This document shows, one piece after another, positions 53,875-59,835 of a stretch of DNA of 64,000 nt (positions within the stretch are counted from its first letter, which is position 1; every line of letters starts with the position of its first letter). The notes beneath the pieces are model-generated. The model saw only the letters and a list, made by a program, of their open reading frames with translations. It did not search any database and had not been told where the DNA came from. The stretch comes from an uncultured Verrucomicrobiae bacterium (GTDB taxonomy: Bacteria > Verrucomicrobiota > Verrucomicrobiia > Limisphaerales > Palsa-1400), in NCBI GenBank assembly GCA_963707025.1, contig CAVPOM010000018.1, positions 128,001 to 192,000 on the forward strand, read 5' to 3'. Made by a program: the position numbers and the translations under genes.

Positions 53875-53964
53875 CTCCTAATCTTAATCTTAATCCTAAT
53901 CTTAATCTCCTTCGGGCAACCGGTTCATGCGGATTAAGATTAGGATTAAGATTAGGATTAGGAG
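53875..53964. repeat. Near-perfect inverted (AATCYT)n hairpin
   Basis: Arm ctcctaatcttaatcttaatcctaatcttaatc pairs with gattaagattaggattaagattaggattaggag. Confidence 0.85.
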
Positions 53965-54060: not shown

Positions 54061-54094
54061 TTGCACTGTTACCCGGTTAGTATTACCGTGGTAA
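54061..54094 (+). promoter_or_regulatory. Putative promoter and BlaI-type operator
   Basis: TTGCAC-17 nt-TACCGT overlapped by the palindrome TTACC-GT-GGTAA (54083-54094) and a degenerate copy at 54069-54080. Confidence 0.55.
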
Positions 54095-54099
54095 CTGTT

Positions 54100-54486
54100 A
54101 TGACCAATCCAAGGATCCATCGCCTCGGCGATCTGCAACTCAAAATCATGAAGGCGCTTTGGGACCGCCCCGAAGCCACCGTCTCCCAAGTCCACCAAAC
54201 CGTTTCGCCCGACGGCGGCCTGGCCCACTCCACCATCGCCACCATGCTGCGCAAGATGGAGGGGCGCGGGCTGGTCAAACACCGCCTGCTGGACCGCAAG
54301 TTCCTCTACCGCGCCCTGGTGCGGGAGGAGGTGGTGGCGCGCAAGATGTCCGAGCATTTCATCGAGGGCCTTTTCGAGGGCAGCCTGGCCGACATGGTGG
54401 CCCACCTGCTCCAAACCCGGGACATCAGCCGCCAGGAGTTGGAACGGCTGGAAAAACTCATCGCGGAGCAAAAAAGGAAATTATGA
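54100..54486 (+). CDS. BlaI/MecI/CopY-family repressor
   Basis: LGDLQLKIMKALW, LAHSTIATML..M..RGLV, LFEGS and ELERL motifs. Confidence 0.92.
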   Translation: MTNPRIHRLGDLQLKIMKALWDRPEATVSQVHQTVSPDGGLAHSTIATMLRKMEGRGLVKHRLLDRKFLYRALVREEVVARKMSEHFIEGLFEGSLADMVAHLLQTRDISRQELERLEKLIAEQKRKL

Positions 54487-57400
54487 TGACGCCGGATTTG
54501 CCTTTTTGGACGCGGCTGCTGGCCCACATCGCGGTGGAGGCGGCTTGCGTGGTGGGGATTGCTTTGCTCCTGGACAGGCTCATTCGCCCGGCGTTTTGGC
54601 GGCGCGCCTTGTGGCAAAGCGCGGCCGTCTGCCTCTTGCTCTTGACCGCCTCCGATCTGAGCGGTTTTGGCCGCGGCCTGGCCTCTTTTGTCTTCGGCCA
54701 CGCGCGCCCGGAACAAAAATTCGCCGTCTGGACCAGCCCCGTGGAAGCCGCGCCAATGCCGCTGCCACCGCCGCCGCGCTCCTTCGCGCCCGCTCCGGCC
54801 GCCGTTACCCTGCCCGTGGTCAAACCTGAAATCGCCCGGCCTGTTTGGTGGCCCGGCCTGCTCTGGCTCGGGGGCGGATTGGCCGTTCTGGGCCGTGTGG
54901 CTGCGGCGCAGATTCTTTTCATTTCGCTTCGCCGCCGCCGGCCCCATCTGGCCCGCGGCGATTTGAACAACCGCGTCGCCGCCATCCTGCAACGGCTGGC
55001 GGTGCGCCGTAAAATCCGCCTGCTCCAGTCTCCGGGCCTGACCGGCCCGATTGCCTTTGGCATACTGCGGCCCAGCGTCGGTCTGCCGGTGGATTTCGCC
55101 GCCAAATTCAGCCGCGCCGAGCAAGACGCCATGCTGGCGCATGAGCTGGCCCATCTGGCGGCGCGCGATCCGCTCTGGTATTTGCTGGCGGACGTGAGCA
55201 GCGCGGCGTTGTGGTGGCATCCGCAGGCCTGGTGGGCGCGCCGACGGCTCCATCGCGCCAGCGAACTGGCCGCCGACGAAGCCGCCGCGATTTTCCCCGA
55301 CGGCCCCGGCGCGCTGGCCCGGTGCCTGGTGAGCTTGGGGAAGCAAATGACCGGGTTTCCCGCCGCGAGCCGGATGGGCGTGGAAGGCGGCGGTTTCCGT
55401 TCCAATCTGGCCGAGCGTGTGCAACGTCTGCTTCGCCTGGCGGACACGGCGCGGCAACCGTCTTATGGCTGGCGCGCCCATGCCGCGAGATTCGGTGTCA
55501 TCATCGCCATTTCCGCCGCCGCCGTTGGGCTGTCCGGCTGTCTGCAAAACCGCGATGCCGTAAAGCAACCGACCTTGCAGGCGAACTTGAGCCAGGCCTG
55601 GGACGCCTCGCCCGCCGCGACCGTCTGGCATTCCGCGCTGCCGGCTGGAAAACCCGAACCTCCCGCGCCAAAAGCGATTACCGCCCTGCCGGTCAAATTT
55701 GAGTTGGGGGTCGTTGCAGCCGGCCAGCCGGGCAGTCCGCCGGTTCCCAACGCTGAGGCCAACGCCAGTCAACTGGGCGCTGGGTATGAGATTACCTTCA
55801 ACTCGCATCCGCGAGTTCGGAACGCCGCCGCTAACACCGATCAGACTGGCACTAGCAATGGCCGCGAGGCCATCGTGCGCAAGCTGCAAAACATCAAATT
55901 GGGCGAAGTGCCGGACGGTTTTGAACAAGGATTACCGCTGAGTGAAGTGCTGAACATCCTGACCAGGCTCGCCATCTCAAAGGACATTGACCACACCGGC
56001 GTCAATTTCCTGTTCAATCCGCGCGTCGGCGGCAACGCGGCAGGGGAACTCGTTGACCCCGGCACCATCACCATAAAAATCACTCCGCCCCTCAGAAACG
56101 TGAACTTGCTGCAAATGTTGGACGCGATCCGCCATACGGCCGACCAGCCTATTGACTTTTCGGTGGCCGATTACGCCGTGTGGTTTTTCGTCAAACCGCC
56201 GGCGAACGCCGCGCTGGAAAGCAGGCTTCAGCCCTTGCTTAATCCCGGTCCCGGCACAAGCCAGGAACGCCAGGCTGTCATGAGCAGACTGCAAGACCTC
56301 ACCATGAAGGAACAGCCGTCCGGTTTTGAACAAGGCCTGCCGTTGAGTGAAGTGCTGAACATCTTGAACAAGCTCTCCATCTCAAAGGACGCTGACCACA
56401 GCGGCGTCAATTTCCTGTTCAATCCGCGCGCCGGCGCCAACGCGGCCGGGGAGCTGGTTGACCCCGGCACCATCACCATAAAAATCACTCCGCCCCTCAA
56501 AAACGTGACCCTGTTGCAACTGTTGGACGCAATTCGCCAAATGGCTGACCAGCCCCTTGACTTTTCGGTGACAGATTACGCCGTGTGGTTTTTCGTCAAA
56601 CCACCGGAGGCCGCGCCGCCGGAAATCAGGACTCAGCCCGTCCCTCTTCCCAGTCCCGCAGCGAAGCAGGGCAATCTCGCGCCGCAGGTAGCGCCCGAAC
56701 CTGCGCTTCCTCCCAATGCGTTGAAGGCGATGCAAACTCCCACCAATGGAGCGGCCACCACGGAGGTCTTCTTGCTCCGATACGCTGATGCCAAGGCCGT
56801 CGCCTCTGCATTGAAGGATGTTTTCAACGCTCCAGACTCCAGACGCGGCGGCGGCGTTGCGGCTGCCGGCGGACGCCCCGGGCGCGCCGCGGCTCGCCTC
56901 AATGCGGTCGCGGATGACAGGAACAACGCCGTCTTGGTCAGCGCCCCTGGAGACTGGATGCCTGGCATCTCCAACATCCTGCTCAAGCTGGATATTCCGC
57001 AAGAAGACACCGTCCAGATCAAACTTTTTAAACTCCGTAGTGCCGATTGCACCGACGTGGCCAACCACCTGCTCGCCCTTTTCCCCGAACCAAAACTCCA
57101 GGCCAACCAGCCGAACCGAAACGGAGGCCGGGGCGCTACTCTCAAGGAGCAAGCCGCCGTCAACGCCGTGCCTGATCCGCGCACCCACTCAGTCCTGGTC
57201 ACCGCTTCAAAAGATACCATGGTCCAAATCACGAGAATCATTGACGAGATGGACAACGAACCGGCCCGGTCTGGGAAGTCATCTTCGCCGGCCGTGAAAG
57301 GTCAAGAGCCGCCTGAGCCAGCTTCGCTGGAAACGCGGATGTTTCATGTCAGCCCCGATATTTTCGTCCGGGGATTGGAAAAAATGTCTCCGCAAATCCC

Positions 57401-58409
57401 TGCCGGACAAAGCAATGCACCCGAAGGAGCCAGAATCGCCGACAGCGGAATCGGCGGCGGCGGGTTGGCTGGCGGAACTGGAGGCATCGGAGGAGGTATT
57501 GGCGCCGGGCTTGGAGGCCCTCCTTTTAGCACCCTCACCAACGCAACGGCTGGTCGCGGCGGAGTTGTAGTTCCGCTTGGAGGCCCTCCTTTTAGCACCC
57601 TCACCAACGCTACAAAGGATAACCTTATGGTGAGCCGCTATTTTACGAGCCTGGGCATTAACCTGACCAATAATGGGGCGTTCGTTTTTTTCAACAACCG
57701 CACTGGCGACATCCTGGTCCGAACCACGGCGCACGATTTGGATGCGGTGGAACGGGTCATCCAACTGCTCAACAAAACCCCGCCCCAAGTCCAGATTGAC
57801 GTCAAGTTCGCCAGCATGCCAGTGGGAGGTTACAAAAGCTTGGGCCAGGACTGGCCGACGACAAACGCCACCCTGCTTACAAACAGCCCCACCATCCTCG
57901 ATTCGTTGAATGACCGGCAGTTCCGCAGCGTCATCAACGCCATTGAACGAAAAAACGGAGCGGATATACTCAGCGCGCCCCGAGTGACAACGGAGAGCGG
58001 GCGAGCGGCGCATATCGCCATCCCAGACATCTTTGCGCCTGGCGACACCAACTATTTCCCGGAGACCGGTCCGACCGTGGACGTTCTTCCCACAGTTTCC
58101 GCGGACGGCTTCTCCATCCAAATGCTAATCATCCCCAGCTCCACGGAATTCGTCGGATATGATAACCCGGTGACGGCGCATTTGCCCGTGCCTCATTACC
58201 GTCTGAGACAGACGGTGATCACGACAAATGTTTTCGATGGCAATACGCTTGTCCTGCGCCCTCTCCCGGCGGAGAACGCCACCAACCAAAACCCGGTGTT
58301 CCTGATCTTCATTACGCCAACGCTCATTGACCCCGCCGGCAACCGCCTCCACACGGCCGAGGAGATGCCCATGGCCCGGCCACAGCCAGTCCCCAACCCT
58401 CCAAAATAG
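54483..58409 (+). CDS. M56/BlaR1-type metallopeptidase fused to repeated periplasmic domains and an abbreviated secretin
   Basis: GILRP.V.LP, AHELAH, WWHP..W, ELAAD; duplicated STN-like unit; three secretin N-like domains; ILSAPRVTT, GPTVDVLPTV and IFITPTLID motifs. ATGA overlap with the BlaI gene. Confidence 0.85.
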   Translation: MMTPDLPFWTRLLAHIAVEAACVVGIALLLDRLIRPAFWRRALWQSAAVCLLLLTASDLSGFGRGLASFVFGHARPEQKFAVWTSPVEAAPMPLPPPPRSFAPAPAAVTLPVVKPEIARPVWWPGLLWLGGGLAVLGRVAAAQILFISLRRRRPHLARGDLNNRVAAILQRLAVRRKIRLLQSPGLTGPIAFGILRPSVGLPVDFAAKFSRAEQDAMLAHELAHLAARDPLWYLLADVSSAALWWHPQAWWARRRLHRASELAADEAAAIFPDGPGALARCLVSLGKQMTGFPAASRMGVEGGGFRSNLAERVQRLLRLADTARQPSYGWRAHAARFGVIIAISAAAVGLSGCLQNRDAVKQPTLQANLSQAWDASPAATVWHSALPAGKPEPPAPKAITALPVKFELGVVAAGQPGSPPVPNAEANASQLGAGYEITFNSHPRVRNAAANTDQTGTSNGREAIVRKLQNIKLGEVPDGFEQGLPLSEVLNILTRLAISKDIDHTGVNFLFNPRVGGNAAGELVDPGTITIKITPPLRNVNLLQMLDAIRHTADQPIDFSVADYAVWFFVKPPANAALESRLQPLLNPGPGTSQERQAVMSRLQDLTMKEQPSGFEQGLPLSEVLNILNKLSISKDADHSGVNFLFNPRAGANAAGELVDPGTITIKITPPLKNVTLLQLLDAIRQMADQPLDFSVTDYAVWFFVKPPEAAPPEIRTQPVPLPSPAAKQGNLAPQVAPEPALPPNALKAMQTPTNGAATTEVFLLRYADAKAVASALKDVFNAPDSRRGGGVAAAGGRPGRAAARLNAVADDRNNAVLVSAPGDWMPGISNILLKLDIPQEDTVQIKLFKLRSADCTDVANHLLALFPEPKLQANQPNRNGGRGATLKEQAAVNAVPDPRTHSVLVTASKDTMVQITRIIDEMDNEPARSGKSSSPAVKGQEPPEPASLETRMFHVSPDIFVRGLEKMSPQIPAGQSNAPEGARIADSGIGGGGLAGGTGGIGGGIGAGLGGPPFSTLTNATAGRGGVVVPLGGPPFSTLTNATKDNLMVSRYFTSLGINLTNNGAFVFFNNRTGDILVRTTAHDLDAVERVIQLLNKTPPQVQIDVKFASMPVGGYKSLGQDWPTTNATLLTNSPTILDSLNDRQFRSVINAIERKNGADILSAPRVTTESGRAAHIAIPDIFAPGDTNYFPETGPTVDVLPTVSADGFSIQMLIIPSSTEFVGYDNPVTAHLPVPHYRLRQTVITTNVFDGNTLVLRPLPAENATNQNPVFLIFITPTLIDPAGNRLHTAEEMPMARPQPVPNPPK
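55917..56602 (+). repeat. Intragenic direct repeat of about 280 bp at a 405-bp offset
   Basis: ggttttgaacaagg...gtgtggtttttcgtcaaacc at 55917-56197 and 56322-56602. Confidence 0.9.
57509..57610 (+). repeat. Perfect 36-bp intragenic direct repeat
   Basis: gcttggaggccctccttttagcaccctcaccaacgc at 57509 and 57575 (LGGPPFSTLTNA twice). Confidence 0.9.
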
Positions 58410-58420
58410 GGCCGTGGCTA

Positions 58421-59424
58421 GAGCGTTTCCATAAATGATATAGCTTGACTGGGGCGAGAGGGCTGGCAGGCTTGAGCCATGCGAGCGATACCCGTGTCTG
58501 CGCGCGAGCGCATCCTGCAACTCTATGAACAAGGCAAAAGCACCCGCGAGATCGCGGACTTTTTCGGCTTTTGCGTGGCGGCGGTGCGCCGGGTCCGACA
58601 GCAGTTCCAAGAGCGCGGCACGCTCCAGCCGCAAACCCATTTGTGCGGGCGCAAAACGCTGCTGAACGCCGGACGCCAGGCTCGCCTGCAAAAGCTGGTG
58701 GCGGCCCAGCCCGACGCGACGTTGGCCGAGTTGGGGGCGCGTCTGGACCGCCCTTTCGGGACCTCCACTGTGGATTTGTGGCTGCGCAAACTGGGGTTGA
58801 GCTATAAAAAAAACGCTCTGCGCCGCCGAGCAGAACCGTCCGGACGTGGCCGAAAAGCGGGCCCATTGGCATGAGCGTCTGGCAAGTGACCCACCTGCCC
58901 GACTGGTCTTCGTGGATGAAAGCGGGGCCAACACCAAGATGACCCGTTTTTGCGGGCGGTCACCCGTGGGCCGAAGACTGGCGGCCCACGTCCCGCAGGG
59001 ACATTATCAGACCACCACCCTGGTCTGCGCCATTCGTCTGGCCGGGCCTGCGGCCCCCTGCCTCTTTGAGGGGGCCATGGACGGGGAAATGTTTTTGGCC
59101 TGGATCCAGCAGGGGCTGGTGGTGGAGTTGCGCAAGGGTGACTTGGTCATCATGGACAACTTGGCCACGCATAAGGTGACCGGAGTCCGCCAAGCCATCG
59201 AAGAGGCCGGGGCAACGCTGCTGTATCTGCCGCCCTATTCGCCAGACTTTAATCCCATCGAAAATATGTGGAGCAAGGTCAAACAAATTATGCGAGGTCT
59301 CGCGCCGCGAACCGCCAAGGAACTGCTCCAAGCGGCGAAGATTGCCTTTGAAGCCATCTCCACCGCCGATTGCCGGGGCTTCTTTTTAAACGCCCGCTAC
59401 GCTACATGATTTATGGAAATGCTC
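58421..59424 (+). mobile_element. IS630-family insertion sequence, complete
   Basis: Inverted ends GAGCGTTTCCATAAATGATATAGC and GAGCATTTCCATAAATCATGTAGC (reverse complement), flanked by TA on each side; DDE transposase inside. Confidence 0.93.
58479..59409 (+). CDS. IS630 transposase, OrfA+OrfB joined by a -1 frameshift at the A8 run 58806-58813
   Basis: HTH-like OrfA ending LGLSYKK; OrfB with FVDES, IMDNL..HK and LPPYSPDFNPIE. Confidence 0.9.
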
Positions 59425-59835
59425 TAATCCAATTGTTGTAGTGTCGGCGCTGCGCGCCGATTTCCGCAATTTCCGTATTTTCCCTTTGACAAAGCCGCCC
59501 TTAAAGCCTAATCTTCCCTACGTGAAAAGGGCGGTCAATATGGAGTCGGTGAGCTTCAGTCCCGCGTTTGGATCGGGGACGATTCCATACATAACCAATT
59601 CACTGTACTTTGAGGTTCCCGGCGCATTTCCTGTCCTCCGCAGCTTTCAGCGAAGGAAGATGAGCCTTTTTGCGGCAAATAAACTCAAGTGCCTTTCCAT
59701 GAACCATTTACACGCCAAAATGAGTTTTCCGGGTCAAACCAAGTCAAACCTGGTCAAGGTAGTTTTTTGAACCTCCGTGCCCATCTTTCCATCGCTCCAA
59801 TACATAACCATTTCACTTATGTATTAGCCAAAGAG

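Follow-up and report, generated by a model that had tools for sequence, protein, structure and literature searches.

A BlaI-type repressor is coupled to an M56 protease with a secretin-like tail

We analyzed a 64,000-nucleotide stretch of DNA (the window; positions 128,001 to 192,000 of contig CAVPOM010000018.1) from an uncultured Verrucomicrobiae bacterium of the order Limisphaerales, in which a blaI-family repressor gene is followed by a gene for an M56 protease fused to a secretin-like tail. An earlier reading of the letters (the original prediction) had described a BlaI-type gene with a palindromic operator coupled to a protein of about 1300 residues, and this is indeed what the locus holds. 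The repressor gene (54100..54486, forward strand) encodes 128 amino acids that match PF03965 (E value 1.3e-28) and the MecI structure 1okr (E value 4e-10). Its stop codon overlaps the start of the fusion open reading frame (ORF; 54483..58409, forward strand) in an ATGA, from which a single stop-free frame runs for 1308 amino acids. The operator, a perfect TTACC-N2-GGTAA palindrome (54083..54094, no strand assigned), lies 5 bases before the blaI ATG and precedes blaI in 13/13 close loci, some of which are near-duplicates; BlaI binding is predicted from knowledge of the family. A weaker upstream copy (54069..54079, no strand assigned) keeps its TTACC half in 13/13 close loci, the other half being variable, and the two sites together form the best tandem double site genome-wide. 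A -35-like hexamer of the putative blaI promoter (54061..54066, forward strand) recurs as TTG(C)AC, TTGAC(A/G) or TTTAC variants in 13/13 close loci; a strict sigma-70 scan returned no promoter at the locus.

Amino acids 1-355 of the fusion (54483..55547, forward strand) form an M56 zinc protease with membrane helices, matching PF05569 over residues 16-268 (E value 5.5e-25, 88.6 bits against a cut-off of 31). The zinc motifs are HELAH (55140-55154, residues 220-224) and ExxxD (55263-55277, residues 261-265), in which E261 and D265 align with E242 and D246 of BlaR1. The HELAH motif had been described as intact, and H220, E221, H224, E261, D265 and R312 are in fact invariant (62/62 aligned sequences). 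The candidate P1' Phe of a self-cleavage loop, F305, is nearly invariant; its spacing to R312, the candidate stabilising Arg, is unlike that of F284 and R294 in BlaR1, and the structural alignment stops at residue 308. The AlphaFold model of this part (models were built with family alignments) has a predicted local distance difference test score (pLDDT) of 86.7 and superimposes on BlaR1 (8exs) with a Z score of 17.4 and a root-mean-square deviation (rmsd) of 3.9 over 250 residues. By motif and model, the protease is intact and BlaR1-like. No transpeptidase (penicillin-binding) domain was matched in the fusion by Pfam or NCBIfam, where NF000326 reached 48.8 bits against a cut-off of 400 and covered residues 127-267 only. 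The fusion is thus a member of the M56/BlaIR family and not a canonical BlaR1.

The join between protease and tail withstood the possibility of a misjoin or an overlooked stop codon. The fusion is intact in 12/14 related loci; of the other two, one runs off its contig and one is frameshifted. Contigs of the public run X1, which may be the source sample, are identical to 58080-58329 and, in pieces, to 55595-56177, and this run carries the same bases across the core deletion described below; in run X2, one contig of a relative joins M56 to the first N0 domain. This evidence is piecewise, as no one contig covers the entire gene. Misassembly or a chance fusion was rejected on the basis of the intact loci and the agreeing contigs. 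Elsewhere in the host genome (G000), lgt (C5:399601-400313) and two other secretin genes (C6:785119-786806 and C6:136595-138458) appear to be split over frames, which suggests indel errors in the assembly; the fusion ORF is unbroken.

The tail is a mosaic of secretin domains

The tail carries five N-domains, with Pro-rich linkers among them, and a secretin core. It opens with two N0 units, copy a (55857..56198, forward strand), from an Amuc_1098-like PilQ, and copy b (56262..56603, forward strand), an internal duplication with 83% DNA identity to copy a; the units are 76% identical. The original prediction was right about the duplication but had called the units STN-like. Pfam STN matched neither of them, and their fold is that of N0 (Z 8.2, rmsd 2.6, 84 residues aligned to the EscC N0 domain 3gr5; Z 6.8 to the PilQ N0 domain), so the STN identity was dropped. 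Three further secretin N-like domains had been proposed and all three were recovered, two as Pfam Secretin_N stretches and the third from the AlphaFold model. N1 and N2 (56760..57254, forward strand; two PF03958 matches) trace to a gene on contig C6 that encodes the N-domains of a type II secretin, and N3 (57330..57770, forward strand) is defined by model and alignment and bears a Gly-rich insertion. This insertion contains a 39-base repeat with copies 66 bases apart (57509-57613), a recent duplication because the close relative P0123 has a single copy.

The beta-sandwich core of the secretin follows (57774..58352, forward strand), with full-length strands in model and alignment. Its PF00263 match scored 23.9 bits against a cut-off of 27.5, and 26.9 on rescoring, or 31.8 with in-frame neighbours. 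The fold resembles that of InvG (6pee; Z 10.7, rmsd 5.7, 206 residues aligned) with strands of native length, so the proposed C-terminal secretin straddles the Pfam cut-off but is recognizable by structure. The tail model has a mean pLDDT of 70, with 85-95 in N0 and the strands. Among NCBIfam models, the Amuc_1098 family NF042912 matched the fusion best (E value 7e-27, 93.8 bits against a cut-off of 750).

The core has lost the parts that enter the outer membrane

A link of 14 residues (58257..58298, forward strand) takes the place of the amphipathic helical loop (AHL) hairpin, connecting DGNTLVL (residues 1252-1258) to FLIFITPT (1273-1280); P0105 has the same deletion length. The near-direct jump between these motifs had been noticed from the letters, and it corresponds to an AHL segment of 11 aligned residues versus 36 in 43/43 native secretins. 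Relative to the PilQ of the same genome, the lip is reduced from 102 to 26 residues and the two gates from 48 to 15 and from 32 to 14 (native minima 76, 42 and 29), with segment names assigned from the known secretin topology.

To place these values, 73 fused cores were compared with 43 native secretins (41 distinct); every protein without a core, and 7 more that were partial or duplicated, had been taken out before the alignment. The fused cores hold N3 and the strands at native length and are shortened in the lip (50/73), gate 1 (69/73) and gate 2 (45/73). Their AHL measures 24 residues or fewer in 52/73, with 13 different lengths, and was lost in 0/43 natives. The focal fusion is among the most trimmed, and all members of its clade (22/22) have an AHL of 9-19 residues. 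P0180, from a different M56 lineage, also has an AHL-less core. The AHL and the lip are the secretin parts that enter the outer membrane, according to two structural accounts (PMC6532946, PMC7545093); because they are lost, pore formation or seating by the focal protein is not to be expected. The original prediction had proposed a trans-envelope secretin mimic. The alignments bear out the mimic, since the tail is by this comparison a selected, trimmed copy of the cell's own secretins, but an outer-membrane-seated core is not supported in a clade in which AHL, lip and gates are deleted, and an outer-membrane-inserted sensor is unlikely there.

The tail derives from resident secretins

The host genome has five other secretin loci. 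N0, N3 and the core of the fusion fit best to an Amuc_1098-like gene on C14 (40-59% identity; 49-52% for N0), which sits in what we take, from the sequences of the genes, to be a pilMNOP-like operon. Amuc_1098 itself is described as an abundant outer-membrane PilQ of Akkermansia (PMC4960237). N1-N2 are 55-57% identical to C6:475436-477139 (71-84% at the DNA level), the next best match having 39%. Sequence comparison thus indicates that the tail is assembled from the cell's own PilQ (N0, N3 and barrel strands) and GspD (N1-N2). The N1-N2 donor is itself a split type II secretin, apparently natural (G000:C6:474169-477139, reverse strand), in which an N-domain gene of 567 amino acids is followed 19 bases on by a core gene of 415 amino acids with its own signal peptide.

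We built a tree of the cores from N3 and strand columns only, excluding AHL, lip and gates and dropping 5 further rows. Monophyly of the fused cores was rejected by the approximately unbiased (AU) test (p-AU 1.3e-10; 51 of 111 rows, 26 versus 25, with long branches excluded), and strong branches force at least 4 changes. The focal clade groups with its own PilQ with support of 99-100 in the Shimodaira-Hasegawa-like approximate likelihood ratio test (SH-aLRT). Across 11 genomes, the own-genome secretin ranked 1, 3, 2, 7, 1, 4, 2, 1, 8, 1 and 33 among 41, and therefore in the top 8 in 10/11. By these trees, the fused cores are polyphyletic and resemble each lineage's own PilQ. The rate of synonymous change (dS) between fusion and own PilQ is 1.0-1.24, versus 0.52 between PilQ genes and 0.55-0.80 among fusions. 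Recent or ongoing gene conversion from the resident pilQ is consequently not supported; the copy is old, and recruitment is recurrent at the level of clades and not continuous.

The last membrane helix ends in a lipobox

The last hydrophobic helix of the protease part (55473..55541, forward strand) is shaped as a lipoprotein signal, with R331 and R336, an Ala-rich h-region and L350-S-G-C353; the lipobox-like motif that had been noticed, with its Cys codon at 55539, is thus present. A lipobox follows the consensus L-[SAT]-G-C after a basic n-region and an h-region, and the motif was judged here by this consensus alone. It is internal (residue 353) and not at the protein N-terminus. Within the focal clade, position -3 is Leu in 23/23 proteins, -2 is Ser, Ala or Thr in 23/23, -1 is Gly in 22/23 and the Cys is present in 23/23. 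In an M56 tree of 100 sequences, from which 4 distant M56 proteins had been removed, the lipobox marks this one clade of 23 (support 94) and the unrelated L084 (LPGC); the Cys column holds W, S or A in the sister clades. Conservation of the Cys is therefore strict in one clade, with one independent case, but not family-wide (24/100), and a family-wide lipobox was rejected. L084 (G114:C15) is a 2592-residue M56 protein in which N0/N3 units recur; the sequence for its core continues in a different frame, probably through a frameshift. Both Lgt and LspA were found in the host genome, the lgt match being the one split over two frames.

Staphylococcus aureus BlaR1 provides a precedent. Its published account reports cleavage by signal peptidase I (SpsB) between Gly331 and Gln332, just past the last helix, with shedding of the sensor and protection of the site by ligand binding (PMC9834060). 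Since the lipobox occupies the position of this cut site, it is best read as a signal peptidase II version of the BlaR1 feature. The original prediction had offered, as an alternative, that cleavage exposes a lipoprotein signal and releases the secretin part; by analogy with BlaR1 this is the better-founded half of that proposal, although the Cys is confined to one clade plus L084.

Sister genes suggest further ways of releasing the tail. An internal Met with a signal peptide, in frame and about 145 residues past HExxH, was found by pattern in 16/100 sister genes, and P0061 and P0069 add two cases by eye (18 in total). Nine of the internal-start genes have DNA, and here GGAG (7) or AAAGGA (1) lies 4-8 bases upstream and one has neither; an internal Shine-Dalgarno score of at least 5 was reached by 6/9 internal starts versus 15/420 background ATGs in the tails. 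A barrel core occurs in 0/16 internal-start genes; most have N0 and N3, and some SLBB or LysM. Some lineages thus probably still make a free secreted product, to judge from these signals. In G027 (L082, C26), a free secreted secretin-core gene with a degenerate AHL and a signal peptide stands about 60 bases after the fusion. P0185 and P0187-P0189 are stand-alone proteins of 211-240 amino acids with a signal peptide, only the second half of a secretin core and an intact AHL.

The focal gene itself carries a relic of such a start and signal peptide (55575..55637, forward strand), in which the TTG codon of Leu365 corresponds to the internal ATG of the sister genes. This TTG is conserved in 10/10 distinct loci (single-codon use in 3/29 invariant Leu control columns) and leads into a W-x-x-S-x-A stretch that has decayed. 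That the focal gene has a functional internal start is not supported, as 9/10 loci have no Shine-Dalgarno sequence and the hydrophobic core is missing. The relic shows that the fusion originated when translation read through into a gene whose product was secreted on its own. The focal tail is probably built so that it can be cut free.

The operon is widespread in one order and appears to be its own sole target

A search of 5.8 billion proteins gave 8000 candidates that were scored, among them 102 relatives, mostly M56-secretin fusions; those with organism labels are nearly all from Verrucomicrobiota. The M56 subfamily is present in 37/151 genomes of the order at an E value of 1e-20, related genomes not being independent in this count. 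blaI lies directly upstream of M56 in 13/14 close and 19/20 distant loci, and both misses start inside M56. In L077, L078 and L080 (G126, G085 and G044), blaI precedes a tandem pair of M56 genes, of which the first belongs to the type with an internal start and no core; the second in G085 carries a core. The fusion is thus a BlaIR switch that is real and widespread in one order, and its secretin tail is new. Our literature search, outside of whose scope lay subscription papers, supplements and the CenIR list of 254 architectures, found neither M56-secretin fusions nor internal starts within M56 genes described.

Neighbouring genes vary and are mostly housekeeping. We found no conserved third gene and no defence-type Pfam family in 20 loci, where 64 of 101 neighbouring ORFs were scanned with Pfam; one T2SSF gene stands two genes from blaI in L032, and there was no other pilus gene among those scanned. 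No pilus or type II secretion genes had been seen beside the fusion, which is correct for the locus, in a genome with the secretin loci given above.

The perfect operator TTACC-N2-GGTAA occurs 3 times in the host genome versus about 1.2 expected; of the other two copies, one is internal to a response-regulator gene and one lies 130 bases ahead of a methylase-like gene. In three related genomes only the blaI site occurs, plus one copy inside recR, and no extra perfect palindrome is shared between genomes. A wider regulon was not adopted, because no convincing second operator emerged; there are 12 near-matches in the host genome, of which two were assigned to genes. From the operator pattern we infer autoregulation with the fusion as the main product. 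The host genome has two more blaI-M56 pairs (G000:C9:324496-328313 and C4:130984-132938), each with its own, different tandem palindromes; a further blaI (G000:C7:330041-330445) has no M56 gene beside it.

The tail is under relaxed purifying selection and turns over

Pairwise counting, run without the G153 pair, gave ratios of nonsynonymous to synonymous change (dN/dS) of 0.15-0.19 for M56, 0.29-0.45 for the core strands and 0.17-0.21 for native cores. N0 gave 0.26-0.40 in the syntenic pair and 0.48-0.58 versus L033, and whole tails reached 0.45-0.68. No segment exceeded 1, so positive selection was not detected by this counting, and the values below 1 throughout argue against neutral evolution of the tail, which the original prediction had named as a way in which it could fail. 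By these counts the tail is under purifying but relaxed selection. Between the focal locus and the syntenic L042, dS is 0.17-0.21 for blaI and five flanking genes, 0.26 for M56, 0.57 for N3 and 0.69 for the core strands; as the native PilQ core is raised too (0.52), this hints at allele exchange without proving it. The tails of relatives add SLBB, LysM, ExbD, SecDF head or TPR domains, and the cassette was found at several chromosomal places inside one clade.

Flanking genes with Pfam names are sodA and an IS630 element, and we take other neighbours, from their sequences, to be folP, cdaA, glmM and oxidoreductases. The IS630-family element (58419-59426) has terminal inverted repeats, begins 10 bases past the fusion stop and is missing from the syntenic loci L031 and L042; its two overlapping ORFs (HTH and DDE_3), with an A-run ahead of the overlap, suggest programmed frameshifting. 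Between sodA and blaI (53876-53963), inverted arrays of hexamer repeats surround a short spacer. They are a common repeat element, because their summed contig depth in soil runs is very high.

Discussion

We propose, with a little less than even confidence, that the operon is an autoregulated feedback switch in which the tail serves as bait for watching secretin assembly and, once shed, is also the output. By analogy with BlaR1, BlaI would repress the operon and the protease would cleave itself in a loop before residue ~305 and cut BlaI when the tail changes position. Through its N3, N0 and strand-edge surfaces, the tethered tail would capture native secretin subunits that are not assembled or not in place, or else partners of these subunits; this contact would shield the cleavage site or pull on the helix, BlaI would be cut and more fusion would be made. 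The last helix would double as a signal peptide, again as in BlaR1, with the signal peptidase I site recoded to a lipobox, such that the action of Lgt and LspA would release the tail with a lipid anchor. Residue +2 of a lipoprotein governs its sorting in Escherichia coli, and the Leu at this position would leave the shed tail bound to the outer membrane if the E. coli rule holds. The shed tail might act as a cap or holdase and so restrain the formation of secretin rings for as long as there is a surplus. With the operon as the apparent sole target, the output would be the tail itself, which may monitor or cap channel assembly. The need for secretin surveillance is real, because secretin multimers in the wrong place are toxic to the point of killing cells, and Psp of Yersinia detects them specifically (PMC5596341). 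In a complex prediction, the tail with its own PilQ scored 0.37 versus 0.00 for the best of 3 controls, and the runs of this pair agreed in at least 45% of contacts with a partner pLDDT of at least 54. This is a weak pass: the mark was reached by 51/78 solved and 2/108 mismatched pairs, but scores of up to 0.60 came from 5/78 solved pairs and all 4 mismatches that passed, so that a result of 0.37 is more often wrong than right. The pass was likely aided by the existence of solved secretin rings.

Several observations weigh against this proposal. The lipobox is absent from 76/100 family members, and in the focal clade Gln+3, Arg+5 and Ala-6 are as invariant as the Cys, which may thus be conserved for another reason. 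It lies about 48 residues past the presumed self-cleavage site, and processing there is assumed. Shedding of BlaR1 is read as turnover and not as an output (PMC9834060). AHL loss is not required family-wide, given the 21/73 fused cores that keep it, and P0006 and P0009 end after N2, with no N3 and no core. The syntenic orthologues L031 and L042 (88% in M56) have no N1-N2 and a different deletion. As for the resemblance to resident secretins, that of G118 is the one ranking 33rd, the G144/G007 pairing under LG+G4 is lost under a mixture model, and the larger dS from fusion to own PilQ than between PilQ genes means that the copy does not track the resident secretin over time. Degenerate operators could also hide a real regulon in a genome that is 88% complete.

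The tail could instead be a generic reporter of export or folding, a rather unlikely reading but the strongest of the rivals. It would report Sec, signal peptidase, Lol or chaperone capacity, with failed shedding or folding letting full-length protease accumulate and cut BlaI; the secretin identity would be minor. M56 tails are indeed very diverse, with 254 architectures according to a preprint (bioRxiv 10.64898/2026.04.08.717257). The extra domains of relatives, the labile tail content and the relaxed constraint (dN/dS up to 0.45-0.68) fit as well, and losing the membrane parts could merely remove toxicity. However, secretin parts were chosen repeatedly, from two donor genes and in two M56 lineages, N3 and the strands are kept at exact length, and with no second operator such a reporter has no obvious useful output. 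The same mosaic, fast-changing tail (dS 0.57 in N3 and 0.69 in the core versus 0.17-0.21 in controls), in a cassette found at several chromosomal places within one clade, would suit a decoy for phages or predators that use pili or secretins. An attacker protein would hit the bait, BlaI would be cut, and the shed pore-less copy would poison ring assembly and so remove the receptor. We consider this improbable, because no defence Pfam families were found among the 64 ORFs scanned and the neighbours are mostly housekeeping genes, dN/dS stays below 1, and a periplasmic bait would be beyond the reach of surface adhesins.

Slightly more doubtful than the decoy is a tethered trans-envelope sensor, in which the uncut protein spans the periplasm and a core in or on an outer-membrane ring relays movement of the gate to the protease. 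Five N-domains and Pro-rich linkers give the tail sufficient length, the cores that keep the AHL (21/73) would be compatible, and contact with the own PilQ was predicted, though weakly (0.37). Yet AHL, lip and gates are deleted in 22/22 of the focal clade, a cleavable lipobox would sever the tether, and the number of N-domains, and hence the reach, varies among close relatives. It is very unlikely that the tail is a decaying passenger, left when the stop codon that separated an M56 gene from the secreted gene behind it was lost, with only protease and repressor mattering. The relic start and signal peptide do show a read-through origin, and constraint is about twice as weak as on native secretins; nevertheless, the long open frames in 12/14 close loci and dN/dS well below 1 largely refute it, as do the confident folds (pLDDT 85-95 in N0 and strands) and the later gain of N1-N2 from another gene.

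The closest known systems are BlaR1-BlaI and MecR1-MecI of S. aureus (PDB 8EXP-8EXT; PMC9834060), which share the blaI-M56 operon, the palindromic operator, HExxH/ExxxD and the fold. A signal-peptidase site also lies directly past the last helix of BlaR1, where the fusion has a lipobox of the signal peptidase II type. In contrast to BlaR1, the fusion has a secretin mosaic tail in place of a penicillin-binding domain and a diderm host, and no blaZ- or mecA-like target was found here. About 94% of BlaR-like proteins have no beta-lactam sensor and about 6% have a penicillin-binding domain, according to the same preprint (bioRxiv 10.64898/2026.04.08.717257). CenIR of Clostridioides difficile, PvmSR of Pseudomonas aeruginosa and M56-TonB of Bacteroides share a BlaR protease with a non-beta-lactam tail or none and an envelope link. 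For none of the three is a secretin tail or an internal start reported; the CenIR text mentions neither secretin nor Verrucomicrobia nor internal start, and the word secretin is absent from the PvmSR text. Compared with its donor for N0, N3 and core, Amuc_1098/PilQ (NF042912; PMC4960237), the fusion lacks the TPR region, lip, gates and AHL and stands behind a protease. Shedding at Cys353 would turn the tail into a secretin-like protein with a lipid anchor, comparable to the liposecretin HxcQ of P. aeruginosa (PMC3542185), but from an internal lipobox and without the pore-forming parts. The Psp response (PspBC) is a possible analogue, an inner-membrane system that detects and neutralises secretins (PMC5596341); its proteins are unrelated, and the fusion would recognize by self-copy and signal by repressor proteolysis.

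More broadly, and more speculatively than our proposal for the focal operon, these genes may form a dedicated secretin surveillance family in which one gene yields both sensor and effector; we regard this wider picture as possible but unlikely. The own secretin would have been repeatedly copied, its membrane parts deleted, and the copy freed by three interchangeable routes: an internal start with a signal peptide, a lipobox within the protein, or a gene of its own further downstream. Once free, and under the control of its tethered twin, it would cap or block assembly of pilus and type II channels, either for quality control or to rid the cell of a phage receptor. The family offers a testable rule, that an M56 tail copies an envelope machine of the same cell in disarmed form and is maybe a released effector. 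If true, the tail would offer studies of ring assembly a secretin subunit that is naturally minimal and does not insert, the fusion would possibly exemplify a multi-pass protein processed at an internal lipobox, and the design of two products from one gene would be conserved in a widespread order of Verrucomicrobiota.

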